A DNA stretch of 64,000 bases from a candidate division WOR-3 bacterium (GTDB taxonomy: Bacteria > Hydrothermota > Tepidihabitantia > SM23-42): positions 132,989 to 196,988 of the forward strand of contig CP070802.1 of the NCBI GenBank assembly GCA_020343595.1, read 5' to 3'. The position numbers were made by a program, and so were the translations under genes. The notes below the pieces were generated by a model. That model saw only the letters and a program-made list of their open reading frames with translations, had not been told where the DNA came from and searched no databases. Each line of letters starts with the position of its first letter. The first letter of the stretch is position 1. Shown here piece after piece: positions 28,527 to 38,936 of this stretch.

Positions 28527-28827
28527 TTTCCTCCTTACTCATGTATTATAGACAAATCTTCCGCGAATTCAAGGTCCTATCTGTTACCCGTGTTTCAAAG
28601 ATCTACATGCTTGGATGTTAAGCAGGGCAGACAATGGTAACTCAGACTCCAGGCCAATACATGCATTGACATATCACCGATTTCGATTAATCTCAGCAAA
28701 TCGCGTATTAACAAGATTCCCGTTGAAATACCTCGAACGATGAGCGGTGTGAGAATGGATGTGAGAAGTTATTGATACAGTCCATTACCATATGCTAGAC
28801 AAATGTTCGATTGAAAAGGGGGAGATA

Positions 28828-31350
28828 ATGATCTACATATGTGTCGGAATGATCTTTCTTACCAGTATCGGAGGCAAGATACAGGGCAATGTGACCGATG
28901 CGGCTAGTGGTGAGCCAATACAAAACGCCAACGTCCTCGTTCTCGAGACAGATATTGGCTCAGCCACCGATGCAACTGGAGATTTCTTCATTCTTAATGT
29001 CGCGCCGGGCAGGTATGTCGTTGAAGTTTCATGCCTAGGCTACGGTACCAAACGCATCTCGAACGTAAGCGTACAACACGATGAAACGGCACGGCTGAGC
29101 GTTACCCTCGAGCCAACAGCGATCGAAATATCACCCGTCACTGTAACGAGTGAGCGCCCGGCAGTATCCAAGGAAATGGTCGGCACAACTTATCTCGTTC
29201 GGAAGGAAGATATCTCTGCGCTGCCGGTCGATTATACCGTCGACCTGGTGGCTTTTCAAGCCTCAGTCGCCCGCCGGGATACAGCACTGCACGTAAGGGG
29301 CGGCCGCGCCACCGAAGTTCAGTATATGATCGATAATGTTTCGATCATCGATCCACAAACCGGAGAGGTTGCGATCAATCTCACTAAGGGCGTAATCGAT
29401 GAGGTCATCTTCCTGCCCGGCGGCTTCAATGCCGAATACGGACGTGCCATGTCAGGAATCATCAACATGATAACATCGTACCCGGCCGATCACCTGAGCA
29501 CACGGATCAAGGGAAAAACCGAACGCATCATGTCGGATGAGCAGGATTTCGGCTACGAGAACGTACAGACGTCTCTCCATCTTCCTTTCAACCGCAGGTT
29601 GAAAGGCTATTTAGCCTTGGACATCATGCATACGGATGACTGGGATCCCCGCATGTCAATTCTTCCCCACAAAGAGCGCGACGACTATTCCGTCTATGGT
29701 AAGTGGTTATACGACGCATCTGCCAAATTCAAACTGGCATTGAGTGGCGCAATGTCACGCAGCCAGTTCGATCGGTACGAAACTCTGTGGAAATTCCATC
29801 TCGACCACTACCGTTCCGACCTCGAAAGAGGCAATCTCCAGACCCTGAATTTGACATACCTTCCCGATACCCGGAAATTCTTTCAACTGACACTCAGCCG
29901 CCTACATTCCCACAAGACGTATGGCGTACGTGAAGATTCAAATTACGGCATTTTCGAAGATTTCGTATTCCGCCCGTACAGCTCACTGGAGTGGCTGAGG
30001 CCGAGCAGCGATAATCCGTACGGCGCTTACGTATGGAGACCTTACAGCGCAGGTGATTATCCTGAATACGGAGATAAGACTTCGAACGTAATGAAGGCTA
30101 CGTTCAATACAGATCTGCAGATCCACCGACACCATCAGATGAAAGCAGGGTGTGAATATGTTTTGCAGGATTTCAGCAGCCTTACTTATTTCATTAGCGA
30201 CAGCACGAGTCAGCTCCTGGATGAGTACGATTATCAACCAACAGAATACTCGATCTATGTCCAGGACAACATCGACTTCAAGGGTGTCTACGCCAAACTG
30301 GGCTGCCGTTATGACTATTTCTCCAGTGACATAGAAGGTGTCGAACCGAAGCACTATCTTTCACCGCGCCTCGGAGTCTCATTCGAAGTAACCGAGAAGT
30401 TCATTTTCCGAGCGAACCTCGGCCAGTACGCACAGCCTCCCTTATATGATTATATGTACAGCTACTACAGCCTCCTGCCGCTTCCTTCGTACCTCTTTGG
30501 ATACGTTCCGATCATCGGTAATCCTGAACTGACACCAGAAAAGACAGTGAGCTACGAACTCGGTCTTCAGGGTGAAATCAGCGCCAATCTGAGCACTACG
30601 CTCAACGCGTTCTACAAGGATGTCACCGACCTCATCGGCACGCGTCAAGTGCGGCTTCTCCCCTTACACCACGAGTATTTTCAGTACGTGAACATTGAAT
30701 ATGCAAATATCAAAGGTATCGAGACGATTCTCGAAGTGAACCATGGTCCTTTTACTGGCAGGATTTCCTATACCCTCTCGTGGGCGAAAGGAACGAGTTC
30801 CTACGCTGCGGAATTTGGTGACACCATCTACGAAAGACCAGCCAGTGATTATTATCTTGATTTTGATCAGAGGCACCGCCTTTTTGTCCAAGGGACATTT
30901 CGCCTACCCATGATGTCACAATTGCATGTCTTTGGATACTTTGGCAACGGGTTCCCCTATACGCCTCCCGACCCTGAAGGGAAATACGAAGAGAGGAACT
31001 ACGCGAGGCTCCCGTTTCAAAAACAGATCGATTGTTTACTCTCCAAGACCTTCAAGATCGCCGGCGCGGCACTGAGTCTTGATCTTGAAATCATCAATCT
31101 CCTGAATCATCAGTACGAAATCACAACCCACCTCCCGCTGATAAGAGAACCCCATCTTTCCGACTTCGATGATTATGTTACGTTCCACAGTGACTACTAC
31201 AATCCAGCGGCCGATGCAAATCACGACGGTGTAATCGCGCCTTTCGAGGATTATTGGTCTTATGTGGCGATCAGGGAAGCCACCGATGATGTTGTCTACG
31301 CCACAAGTGCACCGAGGAGGATGAGGATAGGCGTTTCGTTTAGTTATTGA
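28828..31350 (+). CDS. TonB-dependent receptor-like outer membrane protein (CarboxypepD_reg-like N-domain + plug + beta-barrel), paralog 1
   Basis: Signal peptide, GKIQGNVTD...YGTKRI (CarbopepD_reg), a plug (VTVTSERP..., QYMIDNVSIIDP), and a C-terminal ...RIGVSFSY strand. A DANHDGVI calcium-binding-like loop sits near the C-terminus. The start was trimmed to the ATG at 28828 after AAGGGGGAG. Confidence 0.65.
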   Translation: MIYICVGMIFLTSIGGKIQGNVTDAASGEPIQNANVLVLETDIGSATDATGDFFILNVAPGRYVVEVSCLGYGTKRISNVSVQHDETARLSVTLEPTAIEISPVTVTSERPAVSKEMVGTTYLVRKEDISALPVDYTVDLVAFQASVARRDTALHVRGGRATEVQYMIDNVSIIDPQTGEVAINLTKGVIDEVIFLPGGFNAEYGRAMSGIINMITSYPADHLSTRIKGKTERIMSDEQDFGYENVQTSLHLPFNRRLKGYLALDIMHTDDWDPRMSILPHKERDDYSVYGKWLYDASAKFKLALSGAMSRSQFDRYETLWKFHLDHYRSDLERGNLQTLNLTYLPDTRKFFQLTLSRLHSHKTYGVREDSNYGIFEDFVFRPYSSLEWLRPSSDNPYGAYVWRPYSAGDYPEYGDKTSNVMKATFNTDLQIHRHHQMKAGCEYVLQDFSSLTYFISDSTSQLLDEYDYQPTEYSIYVQDNIDFKGVYAKLGCRYDYFSSDIEGVEPKHYLSPRLGVSFEVTEKFIFRANLGQYAQPPLYDYMYSYYSLLPLPSYLFGYVPIIGNPELTPEKTVSYELGLQGEISANLSTTLNAFYKDVTDLIGTRQVRLLPLHHEYFQYVNIEYANIKGIETILEVNHGPFTGRISYTLSWAKGTSSYAAEFGDTIYERPASDYYLDFDQRHRLFVQGTFRLPMMSQLHVFGYFGNGFPYTPPDPEGKYEERNYARLPFQKQIDCLLSKTFKIAGAALSLDLEIINLLNHQYEITTHLPLIREPHLSDFDDYVTFHSDYYNPAADANHDGVIAPFEDYWSYVAIREATDDVVYATSAPRRMRIGVSFSY

Positions 31351-31412
31351 TTTGTAGTGATCTTACTTCTTTGAAAATCTATTAGCTGTACCTGTAGTCT
31401 GGGAGGTTTGAA

Positions 31413-33938
31413 ATGATTCATGTCATGATGGCGGTTATCCTGTTTGGCAGTGTTACCGGTAAGATCCAGGGCAGGATTGTTGACGGCAAAACGGACGAGC
31501 CCATTGCATATGCCAACGTCACCGTGCTCGACACCGAACTCGGCGCGGCGACCGATGACGCCGGCTATTTCTTCATCCTCAACGTACCCCCGGGTGAATA
31601 TACCGTAGAAGTATCCTTTATCGGTTACCAGACAAAAAATATCGCGAATGTGATCGTCGAGTATGATAAGACCGTCCGCCTCGAGGTCAGCCTGATGCCT
31701 TCGGCAATCGAGCTTTCACCGGTTACCGTGACCAGTGAACGGCCGGCAGTGTCCAAAGACATGGTTGGTACCACCTATCTCATTCGCAAGACCGAGCTTC
31801 CCTATTTGCCGGTTGATTATACGATCGAGCTGGTGGCGTTCCAGGCTGCAGTTGCCCGTACTGACACGGCGCTTCATGTGCGCGGCGGCCGCGCTACCGA
31901 AGTCCAGTATATGATCGACAATGTTCCGATCATCGATCCCCAGACCGGCGATGCGGCAATAACCATCTCCAAGGGTGTGGTTGACGAGGTCATATTCCTG
32001 CCCGGTGGTTTCGATGCCGAATACGGCCGCGCCATGTCCGGTATTATCAATATGATAACGGCCTATCCGGCTGGCGATTTGAAGATGAAAGGTTACGGCA
32101 AGACCGAGAAGATCATGCCCGAGTATTATGATTTTGGTTACCAGAACGTCCAATCCTCAATACATTTACCAGTGACCAGGAAGTTCAAAGGATTTTTCTC
32201 CTTCGACGCGATGGTAACCGATGACTGGGACCCACGCCTGTATCTGATCTCACATAAGCAGCGACAGGATTATTCAATCTATGGCAAGTGGCTATATGCA
32301 CCGTCAGGAAAGATCAAATTCGGAATCAGCGGTGCGAAGTCGAGAAGTCAGTTCGACCGTTACGAAACACTCTGGAAATTCCGGCTTAATCACTACCGCT
32401 CAGACTTGATGAACGGCGATCTCCAGGCTTTTAACATAAACTTCTTGCCAGATTCGCGCCGGTTTTTCGACTTGACCCTGAGCCGTCTGTATACCGCAAC
32501 GACATACGGTGTGCGCAATCCAGGACCATACGATTTGCTTGATGACTATACTTTCCGTGATTATCAAACCTATGAGTACCCATGGATCGGGATCATGAAC
32601 CCGTTCGGCGTATACCTACGCAAGCCTTACAGTGAAGGTGATTATCCAAGGTATCAGGATAAATCCTCAGAAATATACCGGGCAACACTGCGAGCAAACA
32701 TGCAGATCCACAAGAACCACGAATTGAGAACCGGAGGTGAGTATGTCTATCACGATATCTATAACCTGACCTACTTCACGAGCGATTCGATCGACCCGGT
32801 TTTGGATGAGTATCAATATAACCCGACAGAATACTCTATCTATGTCCAGGATAATCTCGATTATGAAGGTATATACCTTAAACTGGGCTGTCGTTACGAT
32901 TATTTTTCAAATGATATCGTAGGTGCGGAGGCGAACACGGCGATTTCGCCACGGCTCGGTGTTTCCTTTCTCGTCACCGATAAATTCCTCTTCCGCGCCA
33001 ACATAGGCCGGTATGCCCAGCCTCCATTATTCAACCAGATGTACGATTACTATAACATCCTGCCGCTCCCGCTCTATGTTCTGTCCCGACCCGATGAATG
33101 GCCGGTCGTCGGCAATCCGAATCTCCAGCTCGAGCAGACAACCAGTTATGAGATCGGTCTGCAAGGCGAGATACGTGAAAACTTGAGCGCCACGGTAAAT
33201 GCTTTCTATAAAGATGTTTCAAATCTTATCGGCACGCGTCATGTTGAAGCGCTGCCGTACGATTATGACCAATATGTTAATATAGACTATGCAAATATTA
33301 AGGGGATCGAAACGATCCTGGAATTCGTGAATTCAATATTCTCGGGCAAGATATCTTACACACTTTCCTGGACCCAGGGTACGAGTTCATACGCAGGGGA
33401 GTACCTTGATCCAGATATCCCGAGGCCCACGACCGAATACTACCTCGATTTTGACCAGCGGAACCGGATCTTTATCCAGGGTCTGATCCACCTTCCCTTT
33501 GAGTCTCAATTCTACGTGTTTGGCTATTTTGGCGATGGTTTTCCCTACGTGCCGCCCGGCCCTGAAGGTAAGTATGAAGAGCGCGGGGTCTTGCGGTTAC
33601 CATCCCAGAAGCAGATCGATTGTGTGCTTGCCAAATCTATTAACATAGCCAACCTCACTTTCAGCCTGAGCTTTGAGGTGCTGAACCTCCTCGACGAAAG
33701 ATACCTGGTTGCACCCCATGCACCGCTGATAGAAGAGCAACAGCGCTGGGATTTCCATGATTACTACACGTTTAAACACCGTTACTACAGTCCGGCAGCC
33801 GATGCGAACCATGACGGTCTACTGACACCTTCTGAGGCATATGATGCTTACACTGCAGCTTATCATGCTACAGACGATTGGGTAAATGCATATTCACCGC
33901 CCCGCCGGGCTCGGATCGCCCTGCAGGTCAGTTTTTAA
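31413..33938 (+). CDS. TonB-dependent receptor-like outer membrane protein, paralog 2 (tandem duplicate)
   Basis: Collinear with the upstream paralog throughout, with roughly 60% identity by eye. It has the same DANHDGLL loop and a C-terminal ...RIALQVSF strand. Confidence 0.65.
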   Translation: MIHVMMAVILFGSVTGKIQGRIVDGKTDEPIAYANVTVLDTELGAATDDAGYFFILNVPPGEYTVEVSFIGYQTKNIANVIVEYDKTVRLEVSLMPSAIELSPVTVTSERPAVSKDMVGTTYLIRKTELPYLPVDYTIELVAFQAAVARTDTALHVRGGRATEVQYMIDNVPIIDPQTGDAAITISKGVVDEVIFLPGGFDAEYGRAMSGIINMITAYPAGDLKMKGYGKTEKIMPEYYDFGYQNVQSSIHLPVTRKFKGFFSFDAMVTDDWDPRLYLISHKQRQDYSIYGKWLYAPSGKIKFGISGAKSRSQFDRYETLWKFRLNHYRSDLMNGDLQAFNINFLPDSRRFFDLTLSRLYTATTYGVRNPGPYDLLDDYTFRDYQTYEYPWIGIMNPFGVYLRKPYSEGDYPRYQDKSSEIYRATLRANMQIHKNHELRTGGEYVYHDIYNLTYFTSDSIDPVLDEYQYNPTEYSIYVQDNLDYEGIYLKLGCRYDYFSNDIVGAEANTAISPRLGVSFLVTDKFLFRANIGRYAQPPLFNQMYDYYNILPLPLYVLSRPDEWPVVGNPNLQLEQTTSYEIGLQGEIRENLSATVNAFYKDVSNLIGTRHVEALPYDYDQYVNIDYANIKGIETILEFVNSIFSGKISYTLSWTQGTSSYAGEYLDPDIPRPTTEYYLDFDQRNRIFIQGLIHLPFESQFYVFGYFGDGFPYVPPGPEGKYEERGVLRLPSQKQIDCVLAKSINIANLTFSLSFEVLNLLDERYLVAPHAPLIEEQQRWDFHDYYTFKHRYYSPAADANHDGLLTPSEAYDAYTAAYHATDDWVNAYSPPRRARIALQVSF

Positions 33939-33951
33939 ACAAGGAGGCGTA

Positions 33952-34401
33952 ATGCTTTTCAGAATAAATATCGGTACGCGCCTCAAGAGCACCGTGTTCC
34001 ACGCTATGATCATTGCGCTGACTTTTGTCCTCATCGCCGTCGGCTGCAAGGATCCCGATGAGTATGATCCAAACGAACCGCTAGACCCGCCACCCGGTCC
34101 GCCGAATCTTCTCTTTCCGTTGCCAGATACAAATCTGTGCAGTTCTTCGGTTTTTCAGAACGTCTTTTTTGACTGGAATATTGTGGGCGGCTCTGAAGTT
34201 TACCAGATCCAGGTCGATAGTCTAATCACCTTTGAGACGGCTGAGCTACTTCAATATTATTATCCGCCGACGTATATTCAGTTATACCGTTACGACAGTA
34301 GAGCGACTTACTATGCGCGAATACGAGCCGGCAGTCACCGGTGGACCAATTATACTGACTGGTCCGAGGTTCGGAGATTCTACCTGCGACCCGACCCATA
34401 G
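33952..34401 (+). CDS. Small lipoprotein (lipobox LIAVGC), Pro-rich linker + beta-rich domain, paralog A
   Basis: Start ATG 33952 after AAGGAGG. Sequence ...AVGCKDPDEYDPNEPLDPPPGPP...YYARIRAGSHRWTNYTDWSEVRRFYL. Confidence 0.55.
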   Translation: MLFRINIGTRLKSTVFHAMIIALTFVLIAVGCKDPDEYDPNEPLDPPPGPPNLLFPLPDTNLCSSSVFQNVFFDWNIVGGSEVYQIQVDSLITFETAELLQYYYPPTYIQLYRYDSRATYYARIRAGSHRWTNYTDWSEVRRFYLRPDP

Positions 34402-34497
34402 TGTGCTCCTGAGTGCGCATGCTGAGTATATAGACCTGATTCGTCACGGGATATTATCTATTGCAAAAGATACCATTGCGTGTAATATATAGTAGAA

Positions 34498-34920
34498 ATG
34501 TTCAATCGCACATTCAATTTTCTATCCATCCTTACTCTAATCTCGGTCTTTGTGCTGCTGGCAAGAATTTCCTGTACCGATCCTGACGAATACAATCCTC
34601 AAATACAAAAAATCCCTCCTCCGGATCCTCCCGAAGTCATAAACCCACTGCTTGATACTGTCATTTGTGGTGGTCCGGTCTTCTTCGACTGGACAGTACC
34701 AGCAGGCTCCGAGATATTCCAGATTCAGACTGACACGACGCCTTCATTCAATACCGCGGAAATGTTCCAAACCTTCGCGTCAGCAGCGATCCTGGGCCTG
34801 GAATACTACGGAACGAGGAGAATCACGTATTACGCAAGAATACGCGCCGGTAGTTCAGGCTGGTCAGATTACACGGTTTGGTCCGATATCAGACGATTCT
34901 ACCTCTGGCAAGAATCCTGA
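34498..34920 (+). CDS. Small lipoprotein paralog B (lipobox LARISC)
   Basis: CTDPDEYNPQ...PPPDPP...YYARIRAGSSGWSDYTVWSDIRRFYL, collinear with paralog A. Confidence 0.55.
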   Translation: MFNRTFNFLSILTLISVFVLLARISCTDPDEYNPQIQKIPPPDPPEVINPLLDTVICGGPVFFDWTVPAGSEIFQIQTDTTPSFNTAEMFQTFASAAILGLEYYGTRRITYYARIRAGSSGWSDYTVWSDIRRFYLWQES

Positions 34921-34921
34921 C

Positions 34922-35791
34922 ATGAAAAACTTCTTTAAAAGCATTGAGATCGGCCAGCCCGTTTTCCTCAGAAACCTTTTGATCCATCCGATCTCCGGTC
35001 CCTCAGGGAACGGCATCGAGATCTCATCGCTTGAAGATATTCTGAGTGATTCCAGGGGTGAATTCAGCGAACTGGAGCCGCCCGACATCAACCGGATCTC
35101 ATTTTTCAACAACGCGGATTCCGCAGTACTCATGCTGGACGGTGAAGAAGTCATCGGCTCTCTGCAGAACCGTATCCTCGCCGGCTCAACATTGGTCATG
35201 CCCCGGGCAAGGACCGAAATGCCGGTCATCTGCGCCGAAGAGGGCAGGTGGGAAAGCATCGGCTCGTTTGGAACAGGATACTGCTCATACCCCACAATCC
35301 GCGCCATTCTCTCGCGGCGCGGCAGGGGGTCGAACGGGTTGCAGAAGAAGATCTGGCATGAGATCGAACGTAAACTGACAGTCACAAAAACTCTCAGCAC
35401 AACCTCTTCGATGCACGATATATACAATAATCTTGATGATGAAGTCACGCGCTATCTCGAGGATTTTCAGGGTCTGGGTCCTGACACCATCGGCTTTATC
35501 GGCATCGCCGGAAAGAAGATTTTGGGCTGCGATATGTTCCTGAGCAATGCCGTCTACCGTAGATTTGAGAATAAACTCATACGCAGTTATGCGCTCGATG
35601 CCATCGAATACCGCAGGACATCGGGCGACAGGATCGATGCCCATGCCTTCCTTGAGGGTATAATCAGCTCGGTAAACAAGAAAAGATTGCCTCGAGACAC
35701 TCATCATTTTACCATGAAAGACAGCAGAGCAACCGGACAGGGATCTTTTGCCGATGGCCGCGTAGTACATCTTTCAGTCTTCCCAAAATAG
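34922..35791 (+). CDS. Hypothetical protein (289 aa), translationally coupled to downstream kinase-helicase fusion
   Basis: The tool ORF 34652-35791 overlaps the lipoprotein gene in another frame. The start was trimmed to the ATG at 34922, 1 nt after the lipoprotein stop. No recognisable domain. It ends 3 nt before the GTG start of the kinase-helicase gene. Confidence 0.5.
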   Translation: MKNFFKSIEIGQPVFLRNLLIHPISGPSGNGIEISSLEDILSDSRGEFSELEPPDINRISFFNNADSAVLMLDGEEVIGSLQNRILAGSTLVMPRARTEMPVICAEEGRWESIGSFGTGYCSYPTIRAILSRRGRGSNGLQKKIWHEIERKLTVTKTLSTTSSMHDIYNNLDDEVTRYLEDFQGLGPDTIGFIGIAGKKILGCDMFLSNAVYRRFENKLIRSYALDAIEYRRTSGDRIDAHAFLEGIISSVNKKRLPRDTHHFTMKDSRATGQGSFADGRVVHLSVFPK

Positions 35792-35794
35792 TCT

Positions 35795-38317
35795 GTGCTG
35801 CTCAAGAAATTAGGTAAATACGAGATCATAGAATGGCTCGGGGGAGGCAGATTCGGCGATGTCTTCCTTGCCCGTGATACGATCATCGATAAGAACTTCG
35901 CGCTGAAGATCTCCCGTATGCGGCGTGAAGAAATTGCCATGCTGAAAGACGAAGCAATTCTGCTTTCGTCCCTGAATCATCCGAACATTGTACGTTTCTA
36001 TAACATTGACTTCATCGACAATAAATTCGTGCTGGTGATGGAATACGTCGAAGGAAATAATCTGCGTGATATCATTACCGAAGGCGGTATCGATATCAGG
36101 ACAACGATAACGATACTTAACCAGATCATCGACGCCCTCTCCTATGCACACGGTGCCAAAGTGCTTCACAGGGATCTCAAACCCGAAAACATCCTGGCAG
36201 CGAAGAAAAAGAAGGACATATCAATAAAGATCACCGATTTTGGCCTCGCAAAGTTCATCCGCGCTGATTCGATATCGGCGTCGAGCGCCGGCACCCCGAT
36301 CTACATGGCACCGGAATCCTGGGCGGGAAGCTACAGCGAGAAATCTGACATATGGAGTCTGTGTGTAATCCTCTATGAGATGCTTACTGGAACCCCACCT
36401 TTTCTTGATGACAACCTGGACGGGCTCAAGAGAAAGATCGAGAAGTCCAAATTCACCTCACCGGCGATTCTGAGACACAACATTCCGGAACAGCTCGAGA
36501 AGATGATCATGTCAGGACTTACACCCGACCCGTTGACTCGGCCCGGCATAGCAGAGATCATGGATTACGTCAGCCAAATCGGCAAAGGCATCCGGGGTGA
36601 GAGAGTACGTGTAATGAGAGAGAAACCCGGCGCTATAAAACTCACGCCCGTGCAGAAAGAAATCATCGACTCCCTGTCCGGCGCGGTGCTCGTGCTGGGC
36701 CAGGCGGGCTGCGGAAAAACCACAACCCTTACCGAGGCCGTGAATACACTGATTGGCAAAGGAGTCCCGATCGCCCGCATACTGGTATGTACTTTCACCA
36801 ATAAGGCAGCAAATGACATACATGAGAGATTGACGAAGACGAATCGGTTCGACGTCCATGATCTGTGGCTGGGCACCCTGCACACGCTGGGATTTCGCAT
36901 CCTGCGCCGCGATGCCGAACGATTGGACATCGACCCCGATTTTACGATAGAAGATTCAAAGAGCATCGTCCGGGCAATCGGGATTGATGTTGGAAAGTTC
37001 CGTATCAACGTAGTGTTGAGATTCATTGAGATGCTGAAATCAAAGGGCGTAACGGCTAAGGATTTCGAACCCAGGAATAAGTGGGAAGAAACGTGTTCGG
37101 ATGTCTACAACAAATACGAAACCTACACGAGGGAGAGCAACATACTCGACTACGATGATTTGATCCTTCTTTCGATTAGATTGCTTGAAGACAACGTTGA
37201 TATCAGACAGGAGTACCAGAACATGTTCGACCACATCTTCGTCGATGAGCTTCAAGATATCAACCCTGCGCAGTACGATTTGATCAGGCTTATATATAAG
37301 GAAAGAATTTTCTTCACGGGCGATGGCGATCAGGCGATCTACGGTTGGCGTGGTGCGCAAAAGGAACTAATCCACCGCGTTCCGAAGGATTATCCGGCCG
37401 TCAAAATGTTCCAGCTCAATCAGAGCTTCCGTCTCGCTCAGGGTATCATCGATATCGCAAACAGCCTCATGCACCGGGAGCCGACCGTTATCCCAACAGG
37501 GCAAAAGAGTGATGTATTCGTATACGCCGCAAAATCCGAAGAAGACGAGGTTAGGTTCCTGACTAAGGAGATAGCCAAACTCAGGAAAGAAGATTTCAGC
37601 TACCGGGATATCGTTGTCCTGTGTCGCATGAACCAGCTCGCACGCGTCTATCAAGAAGCAATGGCAAAAGCGCGCATACCACATGCATTGATCAGCGGTG
37701 CATCCCTATATGAACGCAGCGAAGTAAAACCCATCATCGATTACCTTGAGACGCTGAAAGAATGTCAGCTGACGGAAAAACCACCTCCTAATTTCGCCGC
37801 TCGAATGAACAACCTACTGAGGATACCAAAGCGGAAAGCCCGACGTGCGCAAGGAGTCTATGAACACCATCTGGCTAATTTGATGATGCTCGAACCGAAG
37901 AAGATCATAGATGACATAATTGAATTGATCGGTTTGCACGGTGTCGAAACAGAAGAACTCCGGAACCTGGCAAGGGAGCTGACTTCCAATAATCTCGTTA
38001 ATTTCCTGAATCAGGTGCGACTCGCACGAGAACTTGACCTGGCCGGCTGGAGCAAAGACCTGGTTAAGGTTATGACCGTTCATAGTGCAAAGGGATTGGA
38101 ATTTCCGGTCGTATTTGTTGTCGATCTGGTAGAAAATATCTTCCCTCTTACCAGAAAGATATCTTCTCAGAAGGAAATCGATGAGGAACGTAGATTGTGT
38201 TATGTCGCATTGACGCGGGCTCAGAAGAAACTATACTTGTTATACCCGAAGTGGCGTCACGGCCGGTATCAGAAACCATCCCGGTTTCTGGTCGATATGT
38301 TCAAGACCGACCTCTAA
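35795..38317 (+). CDS. Fusion protein: N-terminal Hanks-type Ser/Thr protein kinase domain + C-terminal UvrD/PcrA/Rep-type SF1 DNA helicase (840 aa)
   Basis: Kinase motifs: GGGRFGDV (Gly loop), FALKI (VAIK), HRDLKPENI, DFG, MAPE. Helicase motifs: I GQAGCGKTTT, Ia TFTNKAANDI, II FVDELQD, III GDGDQAIYGWRGA, VI VHSAKGLEFPVVFVV and VALTRAQKKLYL. Confidence 0.8.
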   Translation: MLLKKLGKYEIIEWLGGGRFGDVFLARDTIIDKNFALKISRMRREEIAMLKDEAILLSSLNHPNIVRFYNIDFIDNKFVLVMEYVEGNNLRDIITEGGIDIRTTITILNQIIDALSYAHGAKVLHRDLKPENILAAKKKKDISIKITDFGLAKFIRADSISASSAGTPIYMAPESWAGSYSEKSDIWSLCVILYEMLTGTPPFLDDNLDGLKRKIEKSKFTSPAILRHNIPEQLEKMIMSGLTPDPLTRPGIAEIMDYVSQIGKGIRGERVRVMREKPGAIKLTPVQKEIIDSLSGAVLVLGQAGCGKTTTLTEAVNTLIGKGVPIARILVCTFTNKAANDIHERLTKTNRFDVHDLWLGTLHTLGFRILRRDAERLDIDPDFTIEDSKSIVRAIGIDVGKFRINVVLRFIEMLKSKGVTAKDFEPRNKWEETCSDVYNKYETYTRESNILDYDDLILLSIRLLEDNVDIRQEYQNMFDHIFVDELQDINPAQYDLIRLIYKERIFFTGDGDQAIYGWRGAQKELIHRVPKDYPAVKMFQLNQSFRLAQGIIDIANSLMHREPTVIPTGQKSDVFVYAAKSEEDEVRFLTKEIAKLRKEDFSYRDIVVLCRMNQLARVYQEAMAKARIPHALISGASLYERSEVKPIIDYLETLKECQLTEKPPPNFAARMNNLLRIPKRKARRAQGVYEHHLANLMMLEPKKIIDDIIELIGLHGVETEELRNLARELTSNNLVNFLNQVRLARELDLAGWSKDLVKVMTVHSAKGLEFPVVFVVDLVENIFPLTRKISSQKEIDEERRLCYVALTRAQKKLYLLYPKWRHGRYQKPSRFLVDMFKTDL

Positions 38318-38318
38318 G

Positions 38319-38936
38319 CTACAAACCCTTGCGATACCGCGAACGTTTTCTGTAGTATATTACTGCCAGAATGACAATAACTGCCGCCAATACGGAGGCA
38401 GCGATTACGGTATAATTCCTCAGAAAGAGTGATGCTTCATCCCATGACGCACCAACATAAAAACCCACAGCGATCAAAAATGCATTCCACACGAGCACGC
38501 TGATAGCACTGAAGATAAGGAACTTTCCCCTCGCGATCCCGGACATGCCTGCCGCGAAGCTGATCGGCGCGCGCATGCCGGGCAGGAACCGGTTAAGAAT
38601 CAAAATCAGATCCCCGCGTTCGCGGAATCTCTTTCTCGCCCGCTCCACGAGACGCAAGGGGAAGATGCGGCGCAGAAAACTGCGGGAAATGAATGCCAGC
38701 AGACCATCCCCGTGCTTCTTGCCGATCACGTAGAGAAGCATGATACCGCTGATGCTGCCCAGAACAGTTAACGCAAACAATAAGTACGGATCATAGTATC
38801 CGCGTCCTGCAAGGAACGAGAAGACCAGGACAAAGGCATCTGAGGGGTAAGGCGGAAAGACACTCTCGAACATCGCATTGAAGAAGAGAAATATATAGAT
38901 AAGAAGTAAACCCTGTCTGCTTATCCACTCAAACAT
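38319..38936 (-). CDS. DedA family (SNARE-associated/TVP38) membrane protein
   Basis: Multi-TM protein with a DedA-like core (FLAGRGYYDPY..., LNRFLPGMRAPISFAAGM). Confidence 0.75.
   Translation of the reverse strand: MFEWISRQGLLLIYIFLFFNAMFESVFPPYPSDAFVLVFSFLAGRGYYDPYLLFALTVLGSISGIMLLYVIGKKHGDGLLAFISRSFLRRIFPLRLVERARKRFRERGDLILILNRFLPGMRAPISFAAGMSGIARGKFLIFSAISVLVWNAFLIAVGFYVGASWDEASLFLRNYTVIAASVLAAVIVILAVIYYRKRSRYRKGL

Follow-up and report, generated by a model that had tools for sequence, protein, structure and literature searches.

The locus described here raises the question of what a bacterium does with a protein kinase and a DNA helicase joined in one polypeptide, and whether the gene next to this fusion takes part in the same process. 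It lies in a 64,000-nucleotide stretch of the genome of a candidate division WOR-3 bacterium (GenBank accession CP070802.1, positions 132,989 to 196,988), hereafter called the window, whose numbering is used throughout. Both open reading frames were found on the + strand at the coordinates and in the order given by an earlier, sequence-only reading: an ARPP-1 family gene with an ATG start encoding a cytoplasmic protein of 289 aa (34922..35791) and, with a spacer of 3 nt between its stop codon and the following GTG, a gene encoding a fusion of a Hanks Ser/Thr kinase and a PcrA/UvrD-like SF1A helicase of 840 aa (35795..38317). A common N-terminus, MLLKKLGKYEI, in all aligned homologues (alignment A1, n=15) supports the GTG start.

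The N-terminal part of the fusion (residues 9-257, 35819..36565, + strand) matches Pfam Pkinase (E=1.2e-55; 189 bits, cut-off 31.7). It displays the Gly-rich loop, VAIK Lys (K38), alpha-C Glu (E53), HRDxKxxN (HRDLKPEN, 125-132), DFG (148-150) and APE (172-174) motifs of Hanks-type Ser/Thr kinases. Whether 15 or 80 homologues are aligned, residues G16-G18/G21 of the G-loop, K38, E53, H125-R126-D127/K129-N132, D148-F149-G150 and G166-T167-P168/P173-E174 are invariant; the kinase is therefore complete, as had been claimed, and not degenerate. The activation loop (residues 152-165) was modelled by AF2 with low confidence, and its Ser cluster is not kept in the most divergent homologues (A1). Downstream of the kinase, a basic and poorly conserved (A1) interdomain linker (residues 258-282, 36566..36640, + strand) falls below a pLDDT of 50 at residues 264-279 in the AF2 model of the whole chain (pTM 0.61). 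A single chain thus joins an intact kinase to an intact SF1A motor by way of a flexible tether some 20 residues long.

In the helicase module (residues 283-840, 36641..38314, + strand), both Pfam UvrD-helicase (residues 283-534, E=1e-60, 206 bits) and UvrD_C (residues 727-817, E=1.6e-46, 160 bits) were detected, and the full set of motifs expected at the superfamily level of SF1A UvrD/PcrA/Rep enzymes, Q, I (Walker A), Ia, II (DExQD), III, IV, V and VI, could be assigned. Invariant in both the 15 and the 80 homologues are G305/G307-K308-T309 of motif I, D484-E485/Q487-D488 of motif II, G509..G520 of motif III, F545-R546 of motif IV, T761..G767 of motif V and E797..R808 of motif VI. In A1 (n=15) Q287 and motif Ia show no variation, and in A6 (n=80) they are conserved to at least 90%; R519 (motif III), K766 (motif V) and R800/R808 (motif VI) are further motif residues. 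The proposal of a complete UvrD-type helicase is borne out by the two domains and by motifs that are invariant or near-invariant in the 80 homologues.

The best PDB match of this module is PcrA (1pjr, 277 bits, aligned to PcrA residues 12-402 and 528-639), followed by Rep, UvrD1 and UvrD. Like PcrA, UvrD and Rep, which are SF1A 3'-5' DNA helicases, the fusion has every SF1A motif; it differs from them by its N-terminal Hanks kinase, by a 2B region about 50 residues shorter (residues 655-730, 76 aa, in place of PcrA 403-527, 125 aa) and by stopping at a point that matches residue ~640 of the 724 in PcrA, with no C-terminal tail beyond motif VI. The shortened region belongs to a compact, all-helical 2B-like insert (residues ~645-749, 37727..38041, + strand), delimited by the AF2 helices and the alignment to PcrA, which is the least conserved stretch of the helicase (A1, A6). 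Orthology to PcrA, UvrD or Rep was rejected on the NCBIfam equivalog scores (PcrA 380 versus a cut-off of 911, UvrD 321 versus 1144, Rep 330 versus 951) as well as on architecture, the full-size 2B domain and the C-terminal tail both being missing. In a search of 1.84 billion representative proteins, fusions scored 557-1405 bits whereas canonical-length PcrA/UvrD representatives reached at most 434 bits, and because the latter score so far under the fusions, the helicase half forms a separate clade. Judged by its sequence, it is a PcrA-like SF1A helicase and not a canonical UvrD, because its 2B domain is compact and the PcrA/UvrD C-terminal tail is missing. If the surveillance reading proposed below holds, this helicase would be a natural experiment bearing on the debate over how 2B restrains SF1A helicases. 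The contact of UvrD with RNA polymerase is reportedly located, according to the title of one paper, in the UvrD C-terminal Tudor domain.

These comparisons bear directly on a first explanation, that the fusion is the housekeeping PcrA/UvrD of its lineage, with a role in excision and mismatch repair and in clearing forks, with the kinase regulating the helicase in cis by autophosphorylation on cellular signals and ARPP-1 serving as a loading or accessory factor in the manner of UvrB, MutL or RepD. PcrA, UvrD and Rep are indeed the closest characterised relatives of the helicase half, the fusion is conserved phylum-wide at a single, syntenic locus, and no other UvrD-like gene was found within the window. 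However, the widely missed equivalog cut-offs, the separate clade, the shortened 2B and the lack of a counterpart to the region after PcrA residue ~640 all argue against this assignment, as does the observation that mycobacterial UvrD1 deleted for its 2B domain loses nucleotide excision repair in vivo (PMC13646824). We consider a housekeeping UvrD possible, though on the unlikely side.

The upstream gene product had been described as an unknown partner with no recognisable domain. It matches PF20208 (ARPP-1) from end to end (profile positions 2-297 of 297, E=1.7e-54; 185.6 bits, cut-off 27) and hence belongs to a family that is uncharacterised but has been described (PMC9503650). A Cys and a Gln are absolutely conserved in ARPPs (PMC9503650) and correspond to C104 and Q82 of the 289-aa protein, which identifies it as an ARPP-1. 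These two residues lie in a family-wide invariant cluster (35165..35251, + strand) comprising Q82 and R84 (DGEExxGxxQNR) and C104, E106, R109 and W110 (VxCxEExRW), all six being invariant in alignments A2, A4 and A5, including the ARPPs of defence type at loci L143 and L144. In the AF2 model (pLDDT 86, pTM 0.89) the conserved Cys and Gln are borne by the beta-rich N-terminal part; no structural relative was found among solved or viral structures, hence no hint of a ligand. A second feature is the Ser/Thr-rich segment TVTKTLSTTSSMH (residues 153-165, 35378..35416, + strand), in which S159-S163 are modelled as a loop between two long helices. In A2, the kinase-linked ARPPs all keep S159, T161, S163 and H165; of these, S159 and T161 alone stay near-invariant in the broader alignment A5, and the kinase-linked L090 as well as L143 and L144 depart from the Ser/Thr motif. 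We propose the S159-S163 loop as a candidate phospho-acceptor site; it could instead have a catalytic or structural role.

More than 100 full-length homologues of the fusion were recovered, with identities of 46-94%, and the exhaustive search of representative proteins resolved about 32 clusters at 50% identity, across which the catalytic residues are essentially retained. That every catalytic residue is kept in the 80 homologues, and essentially so in these deep clusters, indicates selection on both enzymatic activities. Among metagenomic ARPP loci, 53 extend far enough to show the neighbouring genes, and in 50 of these the fusion lies next to the ARPP gene. The two genes are neighbours in loci L081-L084 and in the divergent clades L087, L089/L092, L090 and L001, pairing holds in clades where the ARPP is only 27-38% identical, and the identities of ARPP and helicase co-vary (r=0.92). 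In L001, L085 and L086 the gene order is swapped, with the ARPP downstream. Since the pair is kept across deep divergence and despite this swap, we conclude from comparative data that the fusion and ARPP-1 are functionally paired, in line with the coupling suggested before. No description of a kinase-UvrD fusion or of its ARPP context was found in the literature searched, and homologues are annotated at source only as 'UvrD-helicase domain-containing protein' or 'PcrA'. The earlier statement that no such fusion has been characterised therefore stands, and the module is without a studied equivalent in that literature.

The genes upstream of the pair suggest another partnership. Two paralogous TonB-dependent receptor-like genes (28792-31350 and 31413-33938, + strand) and two small paralogous ORFs (about 33949-34401 and 34498-34920, + strand) are tightly packed in the same orientation, the last ORF stopping 1 nt before the ARPP start, and the order receptor, small ORF, ARPP, fusion recurs in L081-L083. 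The pair might then belong functionally to this receptor and lipoprotein operon and take part in uptake through the outer membrane or in envelope signalling, where the kinase would transduce the signal. The receptor and small-ORF arrangement is, however, gone from L084, L087, L089, L090, L092 and L001 while the ARPP-fusion pair persists, and is thus not part of the conserved core. Neither a signal peptide nor a membrane segment is visible in ARPP or fusion, and it is hard to see what uptake would need a complete DNA helicase for. This explanation appears very improbable.

Downstream, a convergent DedA/VTT-domain gene (38319..38936, - strand, Pfam VTT_dom) is syntenic in the main WOR-3 clade, occupying the same position in L081, L083 and L084 and lying two genes further downstream in L082. 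An array of AdoHcyase, MetK, TonB-receptor, DedA, HHH_3 and NfeD genes is shared between the window and loci whose fusions are only 60-73% identical. Housekeeping synteny is kept in loci with fusions 53-73% identical (L081-L083) and is reduced to the DedA neighbour at 47% (L084); the divergent clades are also flanked by housekeeping genes. The module occurs in WOR-3, Stahlbacteria and TA06, its fusion identity declines smoothly from 94% to 46%, each of the contigs L081-L084 carries one copy, and no second copy was found within the window. By these comparisons, the pair is a vertically inherited, core chromosomal two-gene module of WOR-3/Stahlbacteria/TA06-type bacteria.

This mode of inheritance weighs on the phage-defence framing of the sequence-only reading, which had itself remarked that the neighbourhood is no classic defence island, as the housekeeping neighbours in the window and L081-L084 confirm. 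An abortive-infection or sensing system fixed in the lineage would use the helicase to sense phage DNA or replication intermediates and the kinase to phosphorylate host or phage proteins broadly, ARPP-1 being an effector or second sensor. The two halves of the fusion give domain-level PADLOC matches to Gabija GajB (274 bits), a DRT-associated helicase (246), mad6 (243) and PD-T4-6 (212). Those of the UvrD-like core are strong, and the Hanks fold of the kinase likewise scores well at the domain level with the defence kinases MADS MAD6, BREX PglW and PD-T4-6/Stk2-like. The ARPP family was moreover defined in ADP-ribosylglycohydrolase (ARG)/rhodanese-phosphatase conflict systems (Iyer et al. 2022, PMC9503650). 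The contexts listed there also comprise ARPP genes paired with one for HIRAN, WYL or polysaccharide deacetylase but no kinase-UvrD partnership, and the distant ARPP of L144 sits in a GmrSD/Eco57I/T5orf172 island. In contrast, no full-length PADLOC defence model matches and all NCBIfam defence equivalogs fall far below cut-off. Gabija was rejected, as the GajB match covers the helicase core only and no adjacent GajA (ATPase-TOPRIM/OLD nuclease) or other effector occurs in the window or L081-L084; unlike GajB, the helicase is here fused to a kinase in a housekeeping context. A MADS or BREX kinase was likewise discarded (MAD6 167 versus 460, PglW 108 versus 990, with no methyltransferase or system genes nearby). 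An ARG-centred conflict system was also rejected: the protein is a true ARPP-1, scoring higher than the Pfam gathering threshold and keeping the conserved Cys and Gln, but neither the window, with its TonB receptors, small ORFs, DedA, HHH_3 protein, NfeD, MetK and AdoHcyase, nor L081-L084 provides an ADP-ribosylglycohydrolase, rhodanese-phosphatase, HIRAN, WYL or deacetylase gene. The kinase-linked clade is slowly evolving, syntenic and not island-borne, the ARPP signature was not found in IMG/VR viral contigs, and the ARPPs of defence type (L143, L144) are precisely those without the fusion. A defence role is accordingly less likely than a DNA-surveillance module, and we regard it as unlikely.

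The explanation that we tentatively prefer is such a chromosomal DNA-surveillance module, which probably couples events on DNA to protein phosphorylation. The helicase would load on single-stranded or aberrant DNA, such as a gap, a stalled fork or a 3' end, and thereby position, and probably activate, the fused kinase, making the protein a DNA-activated kinase with sensor and kinase in one chain. The kinase would then phosphorylate co-localised proteins, ARPP-1 first, with the clade-specific loop 159-163 as candidate acceptor. ARPP-1 may recognise a lesion or a ligand, or use its Cys for chemistry on a sugar or nucleotide moiety, and phosphorylation would switch this activity. By inference only, the nearest functional parallel to a kinase triggered by DNA is YabT of B. 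subtilis, a Hanks kinase activated by DNA binding that phosphorylates RecA (PMC3708118). Both kinases are physically linked to a DNA-binding element, and YabT is tied to DNA-damage physiology; it differs in being membrane-anchored, with a short basic DNA-binding region and no ARPP, whereas the fusion carries a complete ATP-driven helicase. A 3'-end-binding HIRAN domain is among the reported ARPP partners, and ARPPs are coupled elsewhere to a rhodanese-phosphatase (PMC9503650) and in L144 to a DSPc phosphatase, from which we infer a phospho theme in which the partner is a kinase at this locus and a phosphatase in other systems.

A bolder version, which we hold to be doubtful, extends this surveillance reading by analogy to the logic of ATR and DNA-PK. 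The fusion would be a bacterial checkpoint-type kinase whose helicase, as a built-in sensor, scans or stalls at damaged or single-stranded DNA and turns the kinase on. ARPP-1 would be an enzyme of a kind not recognised before that depends on its Cys, or a sensor that binds a sugar lesion in DNA or a nucleotide adduct covalently, switched by the kinase here and by rhodanese/DSP phosphatases in the conflict-system versions. This would offer a mechanism for the whole ARPP family. If the surveillance reading is right, the fusion would be the first case in bacteria of a Hanks kinase built onto an ATP-driven DNA motor, and would let DNA events feed directly into phospho-signalling, in a phylum for which metagenomes are the sole source. 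It would also provide a handle on ARPP-1, through an obligate partner whose two activities can be assayed and whose single-copy locus evolves slowly, and a concrete hypothesis of phospho-regulation, by a kinase here and by phosphatases elsewhere.

Of what had been reported before, the real and complete fusion, the 3-nt spacing, the pairing, the undescribed architecture and the lack of a defence island have stood, while the ARPP-1 domain had been missed, the partner is no longer unknown and the phage-defence framing is weakened. Co-translation, which had been deduced from the 3-nt gap without a ribosome-binding site, is not general. The absence of a Shine-Dalgarno sequence at the fusion start is uninformative, because the ARPP start lacks one too. 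Across homologues the distance from ARPP to fusion varies: some genes overlap or lie ~4 nt apart, others are separated by 15-175 nt, and the widest gaps, of 750-1200 nt, hold an IS200-like ORF; one clade has the ARPP downstream. One of the three unpaired metagenome loci breaks off past an inserted IS-like ORF.

Both open reading frames proposed in the sequence-only reading were recovered on the forward strand of the window, at 34922-35791 (ATG start, 289 aa) and 35795-38317 (GTG start, 840 aa), and the TAG stop of the first is indeed separated by only 3 nt from the GTG of the second. The larger protein, claimed there to unite a complete kinase and a complete helicase in one polypeptide, matched all three expected Pfam profiles: Pkinase at residues 9-257 (E=1.2e-55), UvrD-helicase at residues 283-534 (E=1e-60) and UvrD_C at residues 727-817 (E=1.6e-46). 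In alignments with 15 and 80 full-length homologues, the kinase G-loop, K38, E53, HRDLKPEN (125-132), DFG (148-150) and APE were invariant, as were Walker A K308, DExQD (484-488) and motifs III, IV, V and VI of the helicase; Q287 and motif Ia were invariant among the 15 sequences and at least 90% conserved among the 80. The motifs are thus not degenerate, and the domain matches together with the invariant catalytic residues establish the kinase-helicase fusion far beyond chance. Its GTG start is supported by the N-terminus MLLKKLGKYEI, with which all fusion homologues begin. In the AF2 model, confidence is low for both the activation loop (residues 152-165) and the linker between the domains (264-279), and the pTM of 0.61 fits a flexible tether between kinase and helicase.

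The family is small. When 1.84 billion representatives at 50% identity were searched exhaustively with HMMER, no more than about 32 clusters proved to contain kinase and helicase in full length (830-913 aa, 557-1405 bits); lower in the ranking stand very large, unrelated proteins with several kinases and, at 434 bits or less, PcrA/UvrD proteins of canonical length. HRD, DFG, Walker A and DExQD are kept in nearly all of these clusters; DDxQD replaces DExQD in helicase motif II of up to three divergent ones (P0296, P0297 and P0299, the first labelled Thermosulfidibacter or Aquificota), and HGD replaces HRD in the kinase catalytic loop of one (P0292). By their source names, members belong to candidate division WOR-3, Candidatus Stahlbacteria, Candidatus Hydrothermales and TA06, with further members in MAGs labelled Thermosulfidibacter or Aquificota and in one unclassified bacterium. 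A genome scan with the fusion profile and the patterns HRDLKPEN and DQAIYGWR returned mostly ordinary kinases or helicases among the matches listed, of which L001 was the sole useful locus. Although all three domains of the module are of known kinds, no paper of the searched literature describes a kinase-UvrD fusion, in agreement with the initial claim that none has been characterised, nor does that literature contain the pairing described below; source annotations call the fusion merely 'UvrD-helicase domain-containing protein' or 'PcrA'.

The 289-aa protein had been considered devoid of any recognisable domain, which proved wrong: it matches Pfam PF20208 (ARPP-1) from end to end (profile positions 2-297 of 297, E=1.7e-54). 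ARPP was defined in 2022 by Iyer, Burroughs, Anantharaman and Aravind as an uncharacterised domain with no kinship to known domains and with an absolutely conserved Cys and Gln, present in ADP-ribosylglycohydrolase/phosphatase conflict systems and in two-gene pairs with HIRAN, WYL or polysaccharide deacetylase; the authors proposed sugar moieties as its substrates, with SRAP-like covalent Cys chemistry as a possible mechanism (PMC9503650). UvrD and SF1 helicases go unmentioned in that paper, which also lists no kinases among ARPP partners, and neither DUF6569 nor PF20208 is named in any paper of the searched literature. The ARPP signature is intact in the window protein, with G74, G79, Q82, R84, C104, E106, R109, W110, Q141 and W145 invariant even when distant defence-type ARPPs are included. 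A further motif, S159-x-T161-x-S163-x-H165, is common to most ARPPs linked to a kinase, and residues 159-163 form a loop joining two long helices in the AF2 model (pLDDT 86, pTM 0.89). This model had no relative in the PDB at E<=1e-3 by Foldseek and no significant one among BFVD viral structures; likewise, the sequence profile had no match in the PDB, and ARPP none in PHROGs, PADLOC or NCBIfam. When homologues were sought with the ARPP profile, the 120 matches listed, ahead of some 150 more distant ones, all came from the WOR-3 clade. The mechanical ORF list also starts this gene at a TTG (34652-35791, 379 aa), in overlap with the small ORF ahead of it; that start was dropped in favour of the ATG at 34922, since the homologues are all about 289 aa long.

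Is the partnership of the two genes conserved? ARPP-1 lies directly upstream of the fusion, on the same strand, in all four relatives whose fusions are 73, 60, 53 and 47% identical to that of the window, and it adjoins the fusion in each of the six library clusters that could be linked to loci with genomic context. Scanning metagenome contigs with the ARPP profile gave 60 loci, and in 50 of them a kinase or the fusion adjoins ARPP on the same strand; in seven others the contig holds no further downstream sequence, and the L122 contig stops just past an inserted IS200-like ORF that in L116 precedes the fusion. Only two loci, with very distant ARPPs (23-26% identity), have no fusion. In L143, ARPP adjoins a phage-type integrase. 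In L144 (1687-9088), an ARPP of 26% identity precedes a DSPc phosphatase by 8 nt; both belong to an island that also holds an Eco57I-type methylase, GmrSD and an 827-aa T5orf172 protein but no kinase-helicase. This locus exemplifies the conflict-system setting described for ARPP. The pair is kept at great divergence from the window proteins: in L087 (ARPP 38%, kinase 50%, helicase 39% identity), in L089/L092 (31-32%, 53%, 40%), in L090 (27%, 43%, 32%) and in L001, which is equivalent to L085/L086 (30%, 47%, 34%). In the L001 clade the gene order is swapped, ARPP lying downstream of the fusion, and conservation of the pair despite this swap is strong evidence of functional coupling. Moreover, ARPP identity rises and falls with helicase identity (r=0.92). 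Chance adjacency is ruled out by the swap and by conservation at 27-38% ARPP identity. We conclude that the pairing with the 289-aa ORF, which the sequence-only reading had supposed, is real and the partnership obligate.

The co-translation proposed from the 3-nt spacing does not generalise, since the distance between ARPP and fusion varies: at some loci the genes overlap or lie about 4 nt apart, at others the spacer measures 15-175 nt or even 750-1200 nt. In four loci an IS200-like Y1 transposase ORF sits exactly between the two genes (L103:3097-4026, L116:7055-7597, L122:7112-7654 and L129:2278-2850). These ORFs are 64-78% identical to each other, but the flanking ARPPs only 54-59%; the loci most closely related, L107 and L106, have no Y1 ORF, but have ARPP-fusion gaps of 165-174 nt. 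This suggests that a related element inserted repeatedly at one intergenic site. Their nature and patchy presence rule the inserted ORFs out as a third component of the system.

In the window, AdoHcyase and MetK genes on the reverse strand are followed on the forward strand by two TonB-dependent receptor paralogues, two small paralogous ORFs, ARPP-1 and the fusion, past which lie a convergent DedA gene, an HHH_3 protein, a 238-aa ORF and NfeD. The receptor-like gene is tandemly duplicated (852 and 841 aa, with N-terminal CarboxypepD_reg; 28792-34920 with the small ORFs), and the small ORFs, of about 150 and 140 aa, have no Pfam match. The window gene order recurs at loci with fusions just 60-73% identical. 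A role of the pair in envelope signalling or uptake, together with the receptor operon, might be read from this arrangement: the second small ORF stops 1 nt ahead of the ARPP start, and the receptor-small ORF order is syntenic in L081-L083. In more distant clades the receptor linkage is gone but the ARPP-fusion pair is kept, and we consider this reading highly improbable. The neighbours there are housekeeping genes (PmbA/TldD, GT2, MgtC, a radical-SAM enzyme and a PLP enzyme). In the L089/L092 clade, ARPP is immediately preceded by two ORFs of 451-475 aa (L089:2475-5197, L092:3276-5986), the nearer stop overlapping the ARPP start; the one checked, L089:3842-5197, is a PmbA/TldD-type metallopeptidase. 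A promoter and terminator scan gave chance-level results only.

The neighbourhood had been judged not to be a classic defence island, and four results agree: the locus bears no island signature, no full-length PADLOC model matched, scores against NCBIfam defence equivalogs were far under cut-off, and the ARPP signature was absent from IMG/VR viral contigs. Taken together, they argue for a core module passed on by vertical descent. A fixed anti-phage system, to which the conflict-system occurrences of ARPP might lead, is thus unlikely.

The nearest characterised relatives of the helicase half are PcrA, Rep, UvrD1 and UvrD, and the fusion could stand in for UvrD as a housekeeping helicase that its kinase regulates in cis, a reading we hold doubtful. 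The helicase misses every NCBIfam equivalog cut-off by more than twofold. Its alignment to PcrA spans PcrA 12-402 and 528-639; since PcrA 403-527 is replaced by query residues 655-730, the 2B region is about 50 residues shorter than that of PcrA, and the C-terminal tail past motif VI is lacking. In the AF2 model, residues 645-749 form a compact helical bundle. In mycobacterial UvrD1, loss of the 2B domain abolishes nucleotide excision repair in vivo (PMC13646824), and another paper, by its title, reportedly assigns the contact of UvrD with RNA polymerase to its C-terminal Tudor domain. From these differences and these two papers we infer a specialised motor rather than a drop-in UvrD. Standalone UvrD-like proteins matching about 550-560 query residues (target about 630 aa where full) occur in L002-L029 (e.g. 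L017:8001-9896), from Xanthomonadales, Betaproteobacteria, Gemmatimonadota and others, and library representatives P0334, P0347, P0362 and P0384 are of this type (631-698 aa). Their alignments extend over the helicase half wholly or for the most part, in several cases without a break and at about 30% identity, so that at least some seem to have the same compact 2B region and to lack the tail. Their genes have no ARPP nearby.

What the module does in its uncultured hosts is a matter of inference. In the reading we favour, which we regard as plausible though short of probable, the helicase would engage single-stranded or aberrant DNA and thereby localise or activate the tethered kinase, whose substrates would be ARPP-1 and perhaps other proteins of DNA metabolism; ARPP-1 itself would recognise a sugar or nucleotide moiety or act on it by Cys-based chemistry. 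This reading is supported by the partners of ARPP, which is coupled elsewhere to rhodanese/DSP phosphatases (PMC9503650; L144) and here to a kinase, elsewhere to DNA-end binders (HIRAN) and here to a helicase. A DNA-activated Hanks kinase has a precedent in YabT, which phosphorylates RecA (PMC3708118). The module is clean, deeply conserved and testable, and could unlock the ARPP family. In the L001 clade (L001:4703-5497, likewise L085/L086), and in that clade only, a PLD-like (PLDc_2) ORF with a 4-nt overlap with the ARPP stop may represent a third component of nuclease or phosphodiesterase type; the L001 ORF has a possible C-terminal OB-fold (a tRNA_anti_2 match under the Pfam cut-off).
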